A DNA stretch of 64,000 nt from Escherichia coli (GTDB lineage Bacteria > Pseudomonadota > Gammaproteobacteria > Enterobacterales > Enterobacteriaceae): NCBI RefSeq assembly GCF_003018255.1, contig NZ_CP027440.1; one strand, given 5' to 3'. Positions 53,244 to 61,722 of the stretch are shown here, piece after piece. The notes beneath the pieces were generated by a model that had not been told where the DNA came from, made no database searches, and saw only the letters and a program-made list of their open reading frames with translations. Each line of letters begins with the position of its first letter. Positions within the stretch are counted from its first letter, which is position 1. A program made the position numbers and the translations under genes.

Positions 53244-53260
53244 CTTAAGGTTCACTTAAT
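53244..53260 (+). promoter_or_regulatory. BasR/PmrA box upstream of pmrR
   Basis: CTTAAG-GTTCA-CTTAAT, ~45 bp upstream of the pmrR ATG. Confidence 0.6.
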
Positions 53261-53304
53261 CTCTGACGCGCATACTCTCCTCCAGGTTAACGGAGGAGAG
53301 TGCA

Positions 53305-53394
53305 ATGAAAAACCGTGTTTATGAAAGTTTAACTACCGTGTTCAGCGTGCTGGTGGTCAGCAGCTTTCTTTATATCTGGTTTGCCACGTTCTGA
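53305..53394 (+). CDS. pmrR: PmrR small membrane peptide (29 aa)
   Basis: ATG preceded by GGAGGAG RBS; encodes MKNRVYESLTTVFSVLVVSSFLYIWFATF. Below the ORF-track length cut-off; overlaps basS 3' end antisense. Confidence 0.7.
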   Translation: MKNRVYESLTTVFSVLVVSSFLYIWFATF

Positions 53395-54470: not shown

Positions 54471-55139
54471 TTAGTTTTCCTCATTTGCGACCAGCATATA
54501 GCCAAAGCCGCGCACGGTGCGGATACGGGCTTTGCCCACTTTGTCGCGCAGATTGTGGATATGCACTTCCAGGGTGTTGGTCGAGGGTTCATTGTCCCAG
54601 TTATAGATGTCGTTGTAGAGAATTTCCCGATGCACCGGACTGCCTGCTTTGAGCATTAACCGTGACAGCAGAGCATATTCTTTGGGCGTCAGAATCAACT
54701 CTTCACCGCCCATCCATACCTGACGGCGACCCATATTCAGCGTCAGATTGCCAACAATCAGCTCACTTTCGCCCTGATTATTATGGCGTCGTAGCAGGGC
54801 GCGGATACGGGCGTGTAACTCTTCCAGCGCAAAAGGCTTCACCAGATAGTCATCGGCACCGACATCCAGCCCGGCGATTTTGTCGGTCAGCGTATCGCGA
54901 GCGGTGAGGATCAGTACCGGCAGGGTGTATTTTTTCTGCCGGATACGGGCGAGAAAATGCAGTCCATCTTCGTCGGGTAACCCTAAATCCAGTACCACCA
55001 GGCTGTAATGACCGGCCTCAAGGCTTTGTTCCGCCATCCGCGCGGTTGTCACGCCATCGCACGCGTAGCCTTCGGTTTGCGCCGCCAGAATTAATCCCTG
55101 CAATAACAGCGTATCGTCTTCAACAATCAGAATTTTCAT
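54471..55139 (-). CDS. basR: Response regulator BasR/PmrA (OmpR family)
   Basis: 222-aa ORF; start overlaps eptA stop. Confidence 0.92.
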
Positions 55140-56779
55140 TCACTCACTCTCCTGCAAGTTTGCAGAATATCATCCGCAGCCTGGTAATACTTCGTCTCAA
55201 CGCCAGTTAATCCCAATAGCGTGGAGAATAAATTATCTTGTGAATAGTGTTGCGTTTGCGCCTGTTTTTGCAGGCAGTTCTGGTCAACCTGATACCGTTT
55301 TTGATAATCCTCCGACAGCCACAGCAGCATCGGCACCTGTTTTTGGCTATCCGGGGCGATGGCATAAGGCAGACCGTGCAGATAGATGCCATTTTCACCT
55401 AACGACTCACCGTGGTCAGAAAGATAAACCAGGCTGGTGGTAAATTTATCCTGATGTTCTTTCAGCAGATTAATCGCTTTATCAACAATATAGTCGACGT
55501 AAACCAGCGTGTTGTCGTAAGTGTTCACCAGTTGCTCTTTGGTACAGGTCTGGATCTCGTTAGTGTCACAGGTTGGGGTAAATTTCCTGAACTGCGGCGG
55601 ATAGCGGTTGTAATAGGTCGGACCGTGGCTGCCGATGGTGTGTAAGACAATCACGCCATCACCCTGCAGGTTATTGATGTACTCTTCCAGCCCGTGGAAC
55701 AGCACTTCGTCATAGCATTCGCCGTTGATGCACTGACCTGGCAGATTCAGCGCGGTGACGTTCTGGTGAGGTACGCGATCGCAAACGCCTTTACAGCCGC
55801 CATCGTTGTCATTCCACAGCACGTTGATGCCCGCTCGCTGAATGATATCCAGCACGCCTTCCTGGTGCTGTGCCAGCTCTTCTTTGTAGTGCTCACGCGG
55901 CATATCCGAGAACATGCATGGTACTGAAACTGCCGTTGCCGTGCCGCAAGAGGCGGTATTAGGGAAATAGACCACGTTATCTTTTGCCAGACGAGGATTG
56001 GTTTCGCGTGGATAACCATTCAGCGAGAAATTCTCTGCGCGCGACGTTTCTCCGACGATCAAAATGGTCAGGTTTTTACGTTTCCCATTTTGCATTAATG
56101 GGTTGCGGTGAGCATCTTCACCAATGCGTATCAGTGGCAGGTTGGCTGACCGCTGGTGAGAGTACCACGACCAGCTAGCAACAATGCTGTTGGACGGGCT
56201 TAAGGATTTCACCAGCTCTTTGTTGTTGCGAAACAGCGAGGCATAGTCTTTGTAGAACAGTGCGGCAACCAGCAGAATCAGCAGTACAGAAATCAGGATG
56301 TTGGCCCCGCGGAAAAGAACGCTGCGCAGGCGTGAGGTGGTGGGGGTGATTTTGATCCAGCAGGCAATAATCGCGGCTAACACGCCACTTAACCCCAGCG
56401 TTAATAACATTCGTGGCGTCATCAGGGCATAACTTTCCGCCGGCGTAGTATCAATGATATTGGTGATCATTGAACGGTCGATGACGATGCCATAGGTCAT
56501 GATGAAATATTGTGCAGCCGCACCGACCAGAATAAACAGGCAGGCGAGTGGACGATTAAGCCATAAGAAAGAGCCTAGTGTCAGGACAATATTAATCACG
56601 CTGAATGCGACGACCGGCATCGACAAGAAAACCAGCACGTTATGCAGTGAATCCAGCGGTAACACCTGTAGCACCTGTTTAAAAAAGGCGATATTCAGGC
56701 AGACTGAGATATAAAAAGTAGCAAGTAATAACCAGGAGAATAAATTTAAAGAGGGTCTTTTTAGTAGGCGCTTCAACAT
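55136..56779 (-). CDS. eptA: Lipid A phosphoethanolamine transferase
   Basis: 547 codons from [13 protein letters not shown]-terminal 5-TM domain plus sulfatase-like domain. Confidence 0.9.
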
Positions 56780-56824
56780 CACGGTGTTTCCATCGAACAA
56801 AGTGCGCATATGCTCGCAAAGCAA

Positions 56825-56841
56825 AATTAAGCCAACCTTAA
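56825..56841 (-). promoter_or_regulatory. BasR/PmrA box upstream of eptA
   Basis: Minus-strand CTTAAG-GTTGG-CTTAAT, ~45-60 bp upstream of the eptA ATG. Confidence 0.6.
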
Positions 56842-56857
56842 GTTCTTAAGGTTGGCT
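56829..56857 (-). terminator. Hairpin downstream of adiC (overlaps the PmrA box)
   Basis: AGCCAACCTTAAG-TTCT-TAAGGTTGGCT inverted repeat with T-rich flank. Confidence 0.45.
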
Positions 56858-56882
56858 TTTATGTTTGCTTGATTAAGGGGAA

Positions 56883-58220
56883 TTAATCTTTGCTTATTGG
56901 TGCATCTAAGGGATACGGGTTTTTATGCAGCCGGTTGTAATTCAGCGCATACATGGCGGTGATTACCATCAGAGTGACAAATGACCACATAACCTCTTTC
57001 GCGCCGGACCCTACCACGGCCCAGATGCAGTAGAGGAAGGCAATGGTAGTCACTGCCAGGTATGCCGGGCGTGCTTTACCAAAGTGACCGTGGCCGAGCA
57101 GTAGTAACGCCGCACAGGTGTAAAGATATGGCACCAGTGTAAAGATGACCGACACGGAAGAAACCAGACCGAATTCTTTGGTCGCGTTTGGCGAAATGCT
57201 ACTGAGCTGGAAGATGGTCATCAAAATACCGACGATAATCAGCCCCGCCACTGGCGTGCCCGCTTTATTAACACGGGCAAAAATCGGTGGGAACAGTCCG
57301 TCATCGGCAGCGGCTTTCGCCGTTTGACCCGCCAGCAACGTCCAGCCGCCCAGTGAACCTAAGCAACCCGCAGCTGCGCAGAAGGAAACAATGGCCCCGG
57401 CGGTGTCACCCAACGCCATCCGTGCGGCATCACCGAATGGCGAAGCAGAAACGCGCAGTGCGGCATTAGGGATCATCCCCATAATCGCGGTGGTAGAAAG
57501 TACATAGCAAACGGCAGCAATCAATACCCCGCCAATGGTGGCGATAGGGACGTTGCGTTTCGGGTTTTTCACCACACCTGCGGCAACGGAGGCACTTTCC
57601 ACACCGATGAACGACCACAGCGTAACGTTAAGGGTACTTTGAATCGCACCGAAGGTGCCCAGACCGCTGACGTTCCATGCCGCCATATAGGTTTCACCAC
57701 GGAACCAGAACCAGCCAAATACGGCAATCCCGACGATGGGGATCAGCGCCAGCACGGTAGCAACGGCCTGTACGCGGGTGATCATTTTCGGACCGACAAT
57801 GTTCAGCAGGACGAAGATCCACAGCACCACGACGCAGGTGATGGTTAATACCAATGGGTCTTTCAGAATCGGGAAGAAGTAACTTAAATATCCTACGCCA
57901 ATGACCACCATGGCGATATTGCCGATCCAGCAGGCCAGCCAGTAGAGGACGTTGGTTTGATAACCGAGAAACGGGCCAAAGCAGCGGCGGGCGTAAGCGT
58001 AAGAACCACCAGGACTTGGGTCGAGGAACGACATTTTGGCGTATACCATCGAGAGCCCCAGCGCACCGATAATCGTCACCAACCATCCATAAATGGCAAT
58101 CCCGCCAGTGGAGGCCAGGTTTGCAGGTAACAGAAAAACACCTGACCCCATAATATTCCCCGACACCATCAGGGTGACGGGGATTAAGCCCACTTTGTGA
58201 GCATCAGCATCCGAAGACAT
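56883..58220 (-). CDS. adiC: Arginine:agmatine antiporter (APC family)
   Basis: 445-aa 12-TM ORF. Confidence 0.92.
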
Positions 58221-59454: not shown

Positions 59455-61722
59455 TTACGCTTTCACACACATAACGTGGTAAATACCGTCAATAATTTCT
59501 GTCCCTTCTGTTTCGTGTTCAAATCCAGGGAAATGATGGTCCCAGGATTGCAGCGAGCGTAAATAACTTACTTGCGGACTGTTTTTATCGCCGAAGTTTT
59601 CACCAGACAGCAGCATCGGGATTCCTGGCGGATACGGGATAACTGAGTTTGCCGCGATACGTCCTGGCAGATTTTCAATGGATACCAGTTCGACATTGTT
59701 GTCGACAATCGCGTTGTACGCTTCACGCGGGGTGATTTCCGCCACCGGCAGGCCGGAATAGGCTTCGTTCAACCGTGCGCCAGGGTTGTTTTCTTTCAGC
59801 CAGGCAAACATGGTGTCACCCAGATCGTGAATCCCCATGTTCGCGTAAGTGTCAGGATATTGTTCAACAAGTTCCGGCATCACCTGCGCCAGCGGTGTGT
59901 TGGCGTCATAGTGGCGTTTGAAGGAGCAAAGGGTGTTAACCAGAGTCCCCCATTTCCCACGGGTTACGCCCATAGAGAACAGGAACATAATTTGGAAGTC
60001 AGTGGTGCGGGTAGGCACAATGCCGTGGCGACCAAGCCAGGCAGTGACCAGCGCCGCCGGAACACCGGTTTCTTCCAGTTCACCATCTTCACCCATTCCC
60101 GGAGCAAGGATGCTGACTTTAATCGGGTCGAGCATACTCCAGTTATCCGGAATATCTTTGAAGCCGTGCCAGCTTTCGCCCGGATGCATTACCCAGCAGT
60201 CCTGAACGGTGGTCAGCAGTTTGGTTGGTGCGTCAGCAAAGTCATAGGTTTTGCCGGTTTGTGGGTCGGTGACGACTTCTTTGTTCCACGGTTTGAAGAA
60301 CCAGCTACCGTCAGCGGTGAACTCTTTATACAGCCGCGCCATCGCCTGACGAAAATCAACCGCTTCGTCGATCACTTCCTGCGTCAGTGACAGGCCGCTG
60401 TTGCCGTCCATCATCGACACCGCCACGTCGTTGGATGCGCAGATGGCATACAGCGGGGAGGTGGTGGCATGCATCATGTAGGCCTGGTTGAAGCGGGAGA
60501 AGTTAATCGCCCCACGACCTTCACGTACATGAATATAAGAGGCCTGTGACAGTGCATTCAGCAGTTTGTGGGTGGAGTGGGTGGCGAAAACGGTAGGACC
60601 GTTGTGATCGCCAGGTTCGCCGCGCATGGCATAGTGATCGGCATAGATCGGGTTGAAACGTGCATAGCCGTACCAGGCTTCGTCAAAGTGCAGACGATCG
60701 GAGGTTTTTTCCAGCAGATCCTGCGCTTCTTTAGCGTTATAACACACGCCGTCATAAGTACAGTTGGTCACCACGCAGTAAGACGGTTTTTGCCCGGCTT
60801 TGTCTTTAGTCAGCGGGCTTTCACTGATTTTCTTCTGCAAGGTTTCAGGTTGCATTTCCTGCGGATAGATTGGCCCGATAATGCCGTAGCGGTTGCGGCT
60901 TGGCACCATGTAGACCGGTTTCGCGCCTGTCAGCATCAAGCCTTGTTCGATGGATTTATGGCAGTTACGGTCAACGACCACGACATCGTTATCGGTCATG
61001 CAAGCCTGCATGATAGTGCGGTTAGAGCCGGAAGTACCGACGACTACCGACCAGGAGCGATCGGCACCAAATACGCGTGCGGCATATTTTTCGCTTTCGC
61101 CAAATGCGCCAGTATGGTCAAGCAAAGAACCGAGGGAAGTGCGTTCGATGCCCATGTCGGTGCGGAACAGATTTTCACCATAGTAGTCATGGTAGAAACG
61201 TCCGGCGGGTGTTTTGGTAAAACCAACGCCACCCTGGTGGCCTGGCGCTGCCTAGGAATATTCATGGATGTCGCTATATTTCATCAGCGCGCTGAACAGT
61301 GGCGGCAACAGTTGCTGGCGGTAGCGGGTCATCGCGGCAACGGCGCGTCCGGCGATAAAGTCGGCGGTATCTTCCAGAATCCAGGCGAATTCATCGACAA
61401 GCTCCAGCAGATCCCGGTCCATTGCGGCGAGGGCTTTTTCCCGATCGCCCAACAGGAAGACCGGCACGTTTTGTTGGCGCTCATGAAGCTTACCGATCAA
61501 TTGTCTGACGTTTTGATGTTCGTCCGGATGTTCCATTTGATAGCTGAACATCAGGCAGTCAATGGCTTCGTTTGAAGAGAGAATGGCAAAACCATCATCA
61601 AAGGAGGTGGATTTAATCACGGTAACATTTTGCTGGCTTAAAGCATCTGCCAGACGCTCAACGGCGTTACCGACCCAGGTGTCTTGATGGAGAAACTCGC
61701 TTTCAACAATTAATACTTTCAT
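59455..61722 (-). pseudogene. adiA: Biodegradative arginine decarboxylase interrupted by an in-frame amber codon (TAG at 61252..61254)
   Basis: Track ORFs of 157 aa and 566 aa are in the same frame, separated by one TAG; translation reads ..KYSDIHEYS-stop-AAPGHQGGVGFTK.., where intact AdiA has Trp (TGG) as I recall it. Everything else is in frame for the 755-codon gene. Confidence 0.8.

Follow-up and report, generated by a model that had tools for sequence, protein, structure and literature searches.

A predicted BasR box at the eptA promoter shares its DNA with a hairpin at the mapped 3' end of adiC in Escherichia coli

We analysed a stretch of 64,000 nucleotides from a chromosomal region of Escherichia coli (contig NZ_CP027440.1), hereafter called the window. 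Around the junction described here its minus strand carries the genes adiA, adiY, adiC, eptA, basR and basS, in this order. The spacer between adiC and eptA is 103 nt long and reads, on the gene strand, as the TAA of adiC, 24 nt of 3' untranslated region, the palindrome AAGCCAACCTTAAG-aa-CTTAAGGTTGGCTT, then AATTTTGCTTTGC, the hexamer GAGCAT, a further 30 nt and the ATG of eptA (Table 1). Coordinates of strain MG1655 (NC_000913.3; eptA at 4333947-4335590, adiC at 4335694-4337031) were converted to window positions by subtracting 4278811, and the intergenic sequences of MG1655 and the window differ by one base, which lies outside the hairpin. The junction was matched in 5412 of 5426 complete genomes. 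Its 55-nt element was the same in 4929 of 5409 E. coli genomes; the variant seen in O157 falls outside the stem. A 401-bp query (56650-57050) gave at least 99% identity in 981 genomes and 90-95% in 4284, K-12 among them; within this segment the flanking coding sequence of the window represents a minority allele, and the intergenic element is almost invariant. Three matching places for the junction were on plasmid-typed records, and a few genomes held two copies. Further upstream, adiA (59455-61725, minus strand) is interrupted by an in-frame stop at 61252-61254 (…HEYS*AAPGHQGG), which leaves open reading frames of 157 and 566 codons. The arginine decarboxylase gene of this strain is therefore probably a pseudogene, with adiC and adiY intact.

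Table 1. Features of the adiC-eptA junction, in window coordinates.
Feature	Positions	Strand	Basis and remarks
adiC CDS (arginine:agmatine antiporter)	56883..58220	-	ORF list and RefSeq annotation of identical or near-identical E. coli records; stop TAA 56885-56883
adiC 3' UTR, 61 nt, from stop codon to dominant mapped 3' end	56822..56882	-	Term-seq/TRS row for adiC via MG1655 coordinates
Hairpin 5' arm AAGCCAACCTTAAG	56845..56858	-	Holds conserved third TTAA (56849-56846); conserved from Escherichia to Citrobacter amalonaticus
Central AA dinucleotide	56843..56844	-	With flanking G and C forms 4-nt loop GAAC; AA and TT alternate among lineages
Hairpin 3' arm CTTAAGGTTGGCTT	56829..56842	-	Repeat search and fold
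PmrA/BasR box CTTAAG-GTTGG-CTTAAT (CTTAAGGTTGGCTTAAT); two YTTAAK hexamers, 5-nt spacer	56826..56842	-	Exact pattern match; conserved in 57/57 eptA upstream regions
U-rich tail UUAAUUUUGCUUU	56818..56830	-	Term-seq 3'-end peak over 56830-56822, dominant position 56822
Predicted eptA -10 hexamer GAGCAT	56810..56815	-	10 nt downstream of box; xAxxAT at fixed distance in 35 promoters
eptA (pmrC) CDS, first gene of eptA-basR-basS	55136..56779	-	ORF list and annotation

A first-pass annotation of this DNA had claimed a 13-bp inverted repeat with the sequence CTTAAG-GTTGG-CTTAAT in one of its arms. The repeat search placed the claimed arms inside a longer, perfect inverted repeat (100% complementary) with 14-nt arms that are 2 nt apart. 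The 64-kb window contains no more than three perfect hairpin-type repeats with arms of 13 bp or longer (loop of at most 8), compared to 0.01 per window in first-order Markov shuffles, so that the inverted repeat is confirmed and is no chance feature. As RNA it folds into a hairpin of 13 base pairs that close a 4-nt loop (-18.8 kcal/mol, z = -4.5 against dinucleotide shuffles) that starts 24 nt after the adiC stop codon and is the sole substantial hairpin of the spacer. The stem is AU-rich, with 5 G-C pairs out of 13-14, and is followed by UUAAUUUUG, a U tract that is broken by AA. Upstream of the stem lies GCAAACAUAAA, for which pairing with the U tract is possible; intrinsic terminators often have an A-rich flank on this side. 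The overlap between the box and the stem is extensive: the 3' arm is composed of half-site 1, the 5-nt spacer and the initial three bases of half-site 2, whose other three (AAT) start the tail. An Rfam search of the element returned no family. A match to Qrr was dismissed as chance, being sub-threshold with 22 bits against a gathering score of 50 and E = 0.15.

The box fits the published definition of the pmra-box, two XTTAAY/YTTAAK hexamers that are 5 nt apart (PMC10927774, PMC1525208, PMC10570014), and the pattern YTTAAK-N5-YTTAAK has two matches in the 64-kb window, with 0.10 expected from shuffles. In all 57 eptA upstream regions examined from other species a hexamer xAxxAT follows exactly 10 nt downstream of the box. 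Among 35 distinct eptA promoters its A2 and T6 never vary, and its distance to the ATG is nearly constant. Because of this fixed distance and the two invariant positions we assigned GAGCAT as the putative -10 element. The start site of eptA would then be near 56803 and the box would extend from about -39 to -23, a location near that published for pbgP. At the pbgP, ugd and pmrCAB promoters the pmra-box overlaps the -35 position (PMC10570014), and as judged from sequence the eptA promoter likewise appears to have the known PmrA architecture with the box in place of a -35 element. A generic sigma-70 promoter scan found no promoter in the eptA upstream region, as is expected for an activator-dependent promoter without a -35 element.

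The transcription of eptA in E. coli K-12 is induced by BasS/BasR (PMC8151780, PMC9396075), including induction of eptA-lacZ by basS A20D and basR G53V (PMC8151780). BasR is stated to bind the eptA promoter (PMC9396075), and yjdB/pmrC is a known regulon member (PMC1525208). The earlier proposal of a PmrA box at this promoter thus agrees with the exact pmra-box, with its position 10 nt from the conserved xAxxAT and with the literature on induction, all of which point to a probable BasR site. Our literature search found no published BasR footprint or ChIP data for E. coli and no mapped eptA start site. A PmrA footprint at Salmonella pmrC was reportedly obtained by Wosten and Groisman in 1999, and none is known to us from another genus.

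Two independent IS1 insertions were observed in the 40-bp element, in locus L004 (NZ_CP095520.1, strain GN04171) and locus L066 (NZ_CP059288.1, strain 1506). One lies within the 5' arm after AAAAGCC, and beyond this IS1 a truncated alsA is annotated instead of eptA. The second insertion directly follows CTTAATTTTGC and separates the BasR box from the predicted -10. Either insertion would remove eptA or uncouple it from BasR.

For the 3' end of adiC we made use of the TRS re-analysis (PMC10687069, Supplementary Data 2) of the Term-seq data of Dar & Sorek, which were obtained from E. coli BW25113 in LB in exponential phase and are given in NC_000913.3 coordinates. This lists a 'Primary' adiC 3' terminus on the minus strand at 4335633-4335641, with the dominant position 4335633, a signal of 1 and an adjusted p = 0 in three replicates (PMC10687069). 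Read on MG1655, the peak corresponds to U-UAAUUUUG directly after the hairpin, and the dominant 3'-end position is a G located 7 nt beyond the last stem base. The canonical terminator of adiA served as positive control: in this dataset the 3' end downstream of adiA is found at 4338106-4338114, in and just past the T8 tract that follows the terminator sequence GCGCGG...CCGCGC. As the adiC peak lies in the U tract like that of the adiA control, adiC RNAs end at the hairpin with the geometry of a terminator, and their mapped ends fall between the BasR box and the predicted eptA -10. The stem had previously been read as that of the adiC terminator, and a check of the Term-seq data for adiC 3' ends elsewhere favoured this reading, the primary end being the one in the U tract. 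A loose terminator scan (at least 5 T in 8) flags the site but is no more selective than shuffles, with 14 matches in the window and 8.8 +/- 3.3 in shuffled sequence. With 5 G-C pairs and an interrupted U tract this is no textbook strong terminator, and it would be rated as mediocre on sequence alone. adiC is weakly expressed in LB, and the 3'-end supplements of Adams 2021 contain no rows for adiC or eptA.

The other of the two pattern matches, CTTAAGGTTCACTTAAT, is likewise an exact PmrA box and was found at 53244-53260 on the plus strand, upstream of the pmrR open reading frame (29 codons, 53306-53394). This gene is located downstream of basS on the opposite strand and is activated by PmrA. 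Its leader contains a 10-bp perfect hairpin (53274-53283 / 53292-53301), and the Term-seq table lists a 3' end directly after this hairpin at MG1655 4332112-4332120 (about 53301-53309 in the window).

A scan of the genome collection provided 59 eptA loci from other species. The gene upstream of eptA is adiC in Escherichia, Salmonella and most Citrobacter, a co-oriented yvcK/CofD-like gene in Klebsiella, Raoultella, Kluyvera and relatives, a PRK09867-family gene in Intestinirhabdus and a fumarase gene in C. koseri. In a gap-free anchored alignment of 46 distinct sequences TTAA was invariant at three places, spaced by 8 and 11 bp, as were a GTT and a C. In this set the box and a short palindromic core (TTAA-N4-TTAA) thus occur throughout, unlike the long stem. 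The box and the third TTAA are kept even where the upstream gene is not adiC, and the long palindrome with its T tract is largely confined to the Escherichia/Citrobacter lineage. A strong stem of -17 to -18 kcal/mol was found in six Escherichia genomes, including E. albertii and E. whittamii, and strong stems are also present in the C. amalonaticus group, C. sedlakii, C. youngae and C. werkmanii. The stem is intermediate in several other Citrobacter, -3 to -4 kcal/mol in the C. freundii complex and about 0 kcal/mol in Salmonella. In the Klebsiella clade it is mostly weak and the T tract is absent (CTTAAAATAG), with the box kept. Every adiC-linked genome has a T tract directly after the palindrome. 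Long stems with an upstream gene other than adiC were seen in L025 (12 bp) and in L031 (11 bp, with GAC/GTC replacing GCC/GGC).

Two of the records in this collection carry unexpected titles. The record of L031 (CACSKA010000002.1) is titled Chryseobacterium sp. 18061 and holds a yvcK-eptA locus of the Enterobacteriaceae type, and L063 (NZ_BPQJ01000389.1), a 230-bp contig titled Methylobacterium frigidaeris, encodes an EptA N-terminus with 89% identity to that of E. coli. Both look like mislabelling or contamination.

The arm of the palindrome that lies outside the box is itself conserved. The sequence AGCCAAC(C/A)TTAAG is shared between Escherichia and C. amalonaticus, and the 20-25 nt between the adiC stop and the 5' arm are unalignable; this contrast argues for selection on the non-box arm. 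Several changes in the 5' arm are from C to T and lead to G-U pairs, by which the hairpin in the sense-strand RNA is kept (-15 to -16 kcal/mol). In L014, L015 and L056 a C-G pair has become A-U through a change from CTTAAG to CTTAAT within the box consensus. In the covariation analysis 79.3% of cells were paired compared to 76.7% in shuffles and at most 57% in slid registers, and two-sided changes occurred at only 2 of 13 pairs. Given this weak covariation we make no claim of a covariation-proven RNA structure.

In part of the adiC-linked loci a different structure follows adiC. REP-like GC-rich hairpins of -12 to -29 kcal/mol (e.g. GGCCGGATAGCGCAGGTTATCCGGTC or GCCCGATGA...TCATCGGGC) separate adiC from the box, at about 20-70 nt from the adiC stop, in Salmonella (L010, L011) and Citrobacter (L014-L018, L020, L021, L024, L026, L055-L059), and are absent from this place in E. 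coli. In each of the 11 adiC-linked loci where no further hairpin follows adiC, the palindrome is still strong (-11 to -18 kcal/mol). Where a REP-like hairpin is present the palindrome ranges from 0 (Salmonella) to -17 kcal/mol, and all decayed cases are among these loci. This pattern fits a constraint that is relaxed once another 3'-end-forming structure is present, as seen in few independent lineages.

Taken together, we consider it quite probable that the palindrome is a dual-use element, which serves as the terminator of adiC in the form of RNA and as the BasR box in the form of DNA. Such a double use of the same DNA had been suggested in the first-pass annotation, and it is now supported by the inverted repeat and its fold, by the 3' end mapped in vivo, by the match to the box and by the conservation of the geometry, with BasR presumed to occupy the box. 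A transcript from the adiC promoter would fold into the AU-rich hairpin of 13-14 bp, followed by UUAAUUUUG, and would end in the U tract, most simply via intrinsic (Rho-independent) termination. As double-stranded DNA, the 3' arm and three further bases would constitute the pmra-box, to which phosphorylated BasR (PmrA) would bind in place of a -35 element and recruit sigma-70 RNA polymerase, so that transcription of eptA-basRS would start about 20 bp further downstream of the box. If termination occurs at a hairpin that lies over the BasR site, polymerase coming from adiC has to cross the whole of this site, and would free its RNA at a point of the eptA core promoter that lies between box and -10. 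Termination at this place would insulate eptA-basRS from adiC read-through. For E. coli DNA it is the termination mechanism, the -10 hexamer, the start site and the occupancy by BasR that we infer here.

With respect to its origin, the distribution among species suggests that the box is an older and more widespread constraint than the stem. The extended stem and the T tract look like an elaboration of the Escherichia/Citrobacter lineage, in which the fixed box may have served as the template for the complementary arm. The palindrome is essentially absent in Salmonella, which indicates that activation by PmrA/BasR does not need the stem.

An alternative reading, unlikely in our view and compatible with the dual-use explanation, is that the palindrome is mainly a protein-binding feature of the eptA promoter, with the RNA hairpin as a by-product. 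The 5' arm could provide PmrA/BasR with an additional, inverted contact or be bound by another dimeric factor. The third TTAA, being invariant in 46/46 sequences including clades without adiC, stem or T tract, agrees with this, as does the presence of 9-12 bp palindromes next to other upstream genes. In the PmrA transcription activation complex the DNA-binding domains are shifted 3 bp upstream of the box, on a scaffold that has an upstream AT-rich segment (PMC10570014), and we count this shift in favour of protein binding as well. On the opposite strand, however, the mirrored second half-site is poor, CTTTTA in E. coli and CCAGGC in L025, so that the symmetry stops at the spacer, as would be expected of a stem rather than of a mirrored box. 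The G-U-compatible changes favour pairing in the sense-strand RNA, the E. coli arnB and pmrR boxes have only 3/4 matches at the position of the third TTAA, and the mapped 3' end is left unexplained by protein binding. A full mirrored second PmrA box was ruled out by its degenerate second half-site (CTTTTA), and a palindromic site of the RcsB type was rejected by eye, its half-sites being unlike the RcsAB box.

The third TTAA deserves mention in its own right. It lies 8 bp upstream of half-site 1 and is present throughout the 46 distinct Enterobacteriaceae sequences, even in clades without adiC, long stem or T tract. Together with the stems found next to other upstream genes, this indicates that part of the 5' arm is constrained beyond adiC termination, and the third TTAA falls outside what the terminator model explains. 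It could represent an extra PmrA or RNA polymerase contact that is specific to eptA promoters. As a general trait of pmra-boxes it is not supported, since E. coli arnB has TTAG and pmrR has TTGA at this position.

A second alternative, which we regard as rather improbable, takes the hairpin as a 3'-end stabiliser or processing stop: transcription would read through or stop downstream by means of Rho, and exonucleases would then trim the RNA back to the base of the hairpin. Term-seq reports stable 3' ends only, and termination and 3'-to-5' trimming look alike in such data. The AU-rich stem and interrupted U tract would suit a processing stop, as would the REP-like GC hairpin without a T tract that follows adiC in Salmonella and many Citrobacter; REP hairpins have classically been described as exonuclease barriers. 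Exonuclease trimming, however, usually leaves ends nearer to the stem base. The adiC peak reaches 7 nt 3' of the stem in the U run, which is the geometry of the adiA terminator, and a T tract is maintained directly 3' of the palindrome in every adiC-linked genome. Intrinsic termination therefore remains our preferred reading of the mapped end.

The weakest alternative, that the palindrome is a neutral product of mutation, for instance of template switching that perfected a TTAA-N4-TTAA quasi-palindrome with the box as sole function, has in its favour the seed palindrome that is always present because TTAA and CTTAAG are self-complementary, the highly variable arm length between species and the flips of the central AA/TT among lineages as a signature of hairpin-mediated events, but we consider it highly improbable given that both arms are fully conserved in six Escherichia genomes and into Citrobacter beside unalignable flanks, that the element is near-invariant across 5409 E. 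coli genomes and that the mapped RNA 3' end coincides with it. Within loci L005-L061 close lineages differ in the palindrome centre, which is either AA or TT (the loop GAAC or its reverse complement GTTC), for example between C. youngae and C. gillenii and between Escherichia and C. amalonaticus. On comparison of the sequences this alternation looks as if the inverted repeat had repeatedly given rise to small inversions of the loop.

Both halves of the element resemble known systems. The eptA promoter is the E. coli orthologue of the Salmonella pmrC promoter, and shares with other pmra-box promoters (pbgP/arnB, ugd, pmrCAB) the same two hexamers, the 5-nt gap and the overlap with the -35 position; its own box lies 10 nt from a conserved -10-like hexamer. 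What sets it apart is that its box doubles as the 3' arm of a perfect 14-bp palindrome, which the boxes of E. coli arnB and pmrR and of Salmonella pmrC do not. With intrinsic terminators such as that of adiA (59337-59319, minus strand) the adiC hairpin shares the stem-loop and in vivo 3' ends within the tract that follows it, which in adiC is U-rich by the loose scan. The adiA terminator has a short all-G-C stem and T8-9, in contrast to the long AU-rich stem and the interrupted UUAAUUUUG of adiC. At class II pho-box promoters of PhoB (e.g. pstS) a direct-repeat site of the OmpR/PhoB family likewise replaces the -35 element, about 10 bp from the -10, and to our knowledge no terminator overlap has been described there. 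PhoB sites extend from -25 to -41, which places them 4 bp upstream of the pmra-box (PMC10570014). The PhoB system differs from the BasR box in its regulator and half-site sequence. The palindrome is also distinct from REP elements: the REP-like GGCCGGATAGCGCAGGTTATCCGGTC of Salmonella and many Citrobacter fills the slot in which E. coli has only the palindrome, and the latter is AT-rich, single-copy, dictated in sequence by the BasR box and no REP element.

At compact operon junctions terminators can abut or overlap the next promoter, and DNA-bound regulators can block polymerase, as known from the CcpA and CodY roadblocks of Bacillus. Terminator-promoter overlap at tight junctions is thus a familiar arrangement, and the present case is an ordinary junction made from known parts. 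In comparison to known overlaps, it is here the regulator site itself that encodes one of the two arms of the terminator stem. Public data already contain both the eptA BasR box and the adiC 3' end, and their overlap is undescribed in the literature that we found; our search returned no description of the adiC terminator or of its overlap with the BasR box.

It is doubtful whether the arrangement goes beyond compact packing and acts as a regulatory coupling device that links arginine-dependent acid resistance to lipid A modification. In one form of such coupling, phosphorylated BasR may pose a roadblock where the terminator hairpin forms, which would make adiC termination and read-through into eptA-basRS dependent on BasR. 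Conversely, strong adiC transcription as induced by acid or anaerobiosis may sweep BasR off its site and damp the activation of eptA. If true, coupling would connect two systems that both respond to low pH.

The eptA-basRS operon controls the phosphoethanolamine modification of lipid A and hence tolerance to polymyxin and colistin. Promoter mutations, reporter fusions and IS insertions at this place would alter both the insulation from adiC read-through and the BasR-dependent activation. The junction provides a clean natural example of a single sequence under joint constraint at the levels of DNA and RNA. Salmonella, where the stem was lost and a REP hairpin gained, and the Klebsiella clade, with the box but without the T tract, offer natural contrasts for the origin and decay of such overlaps.
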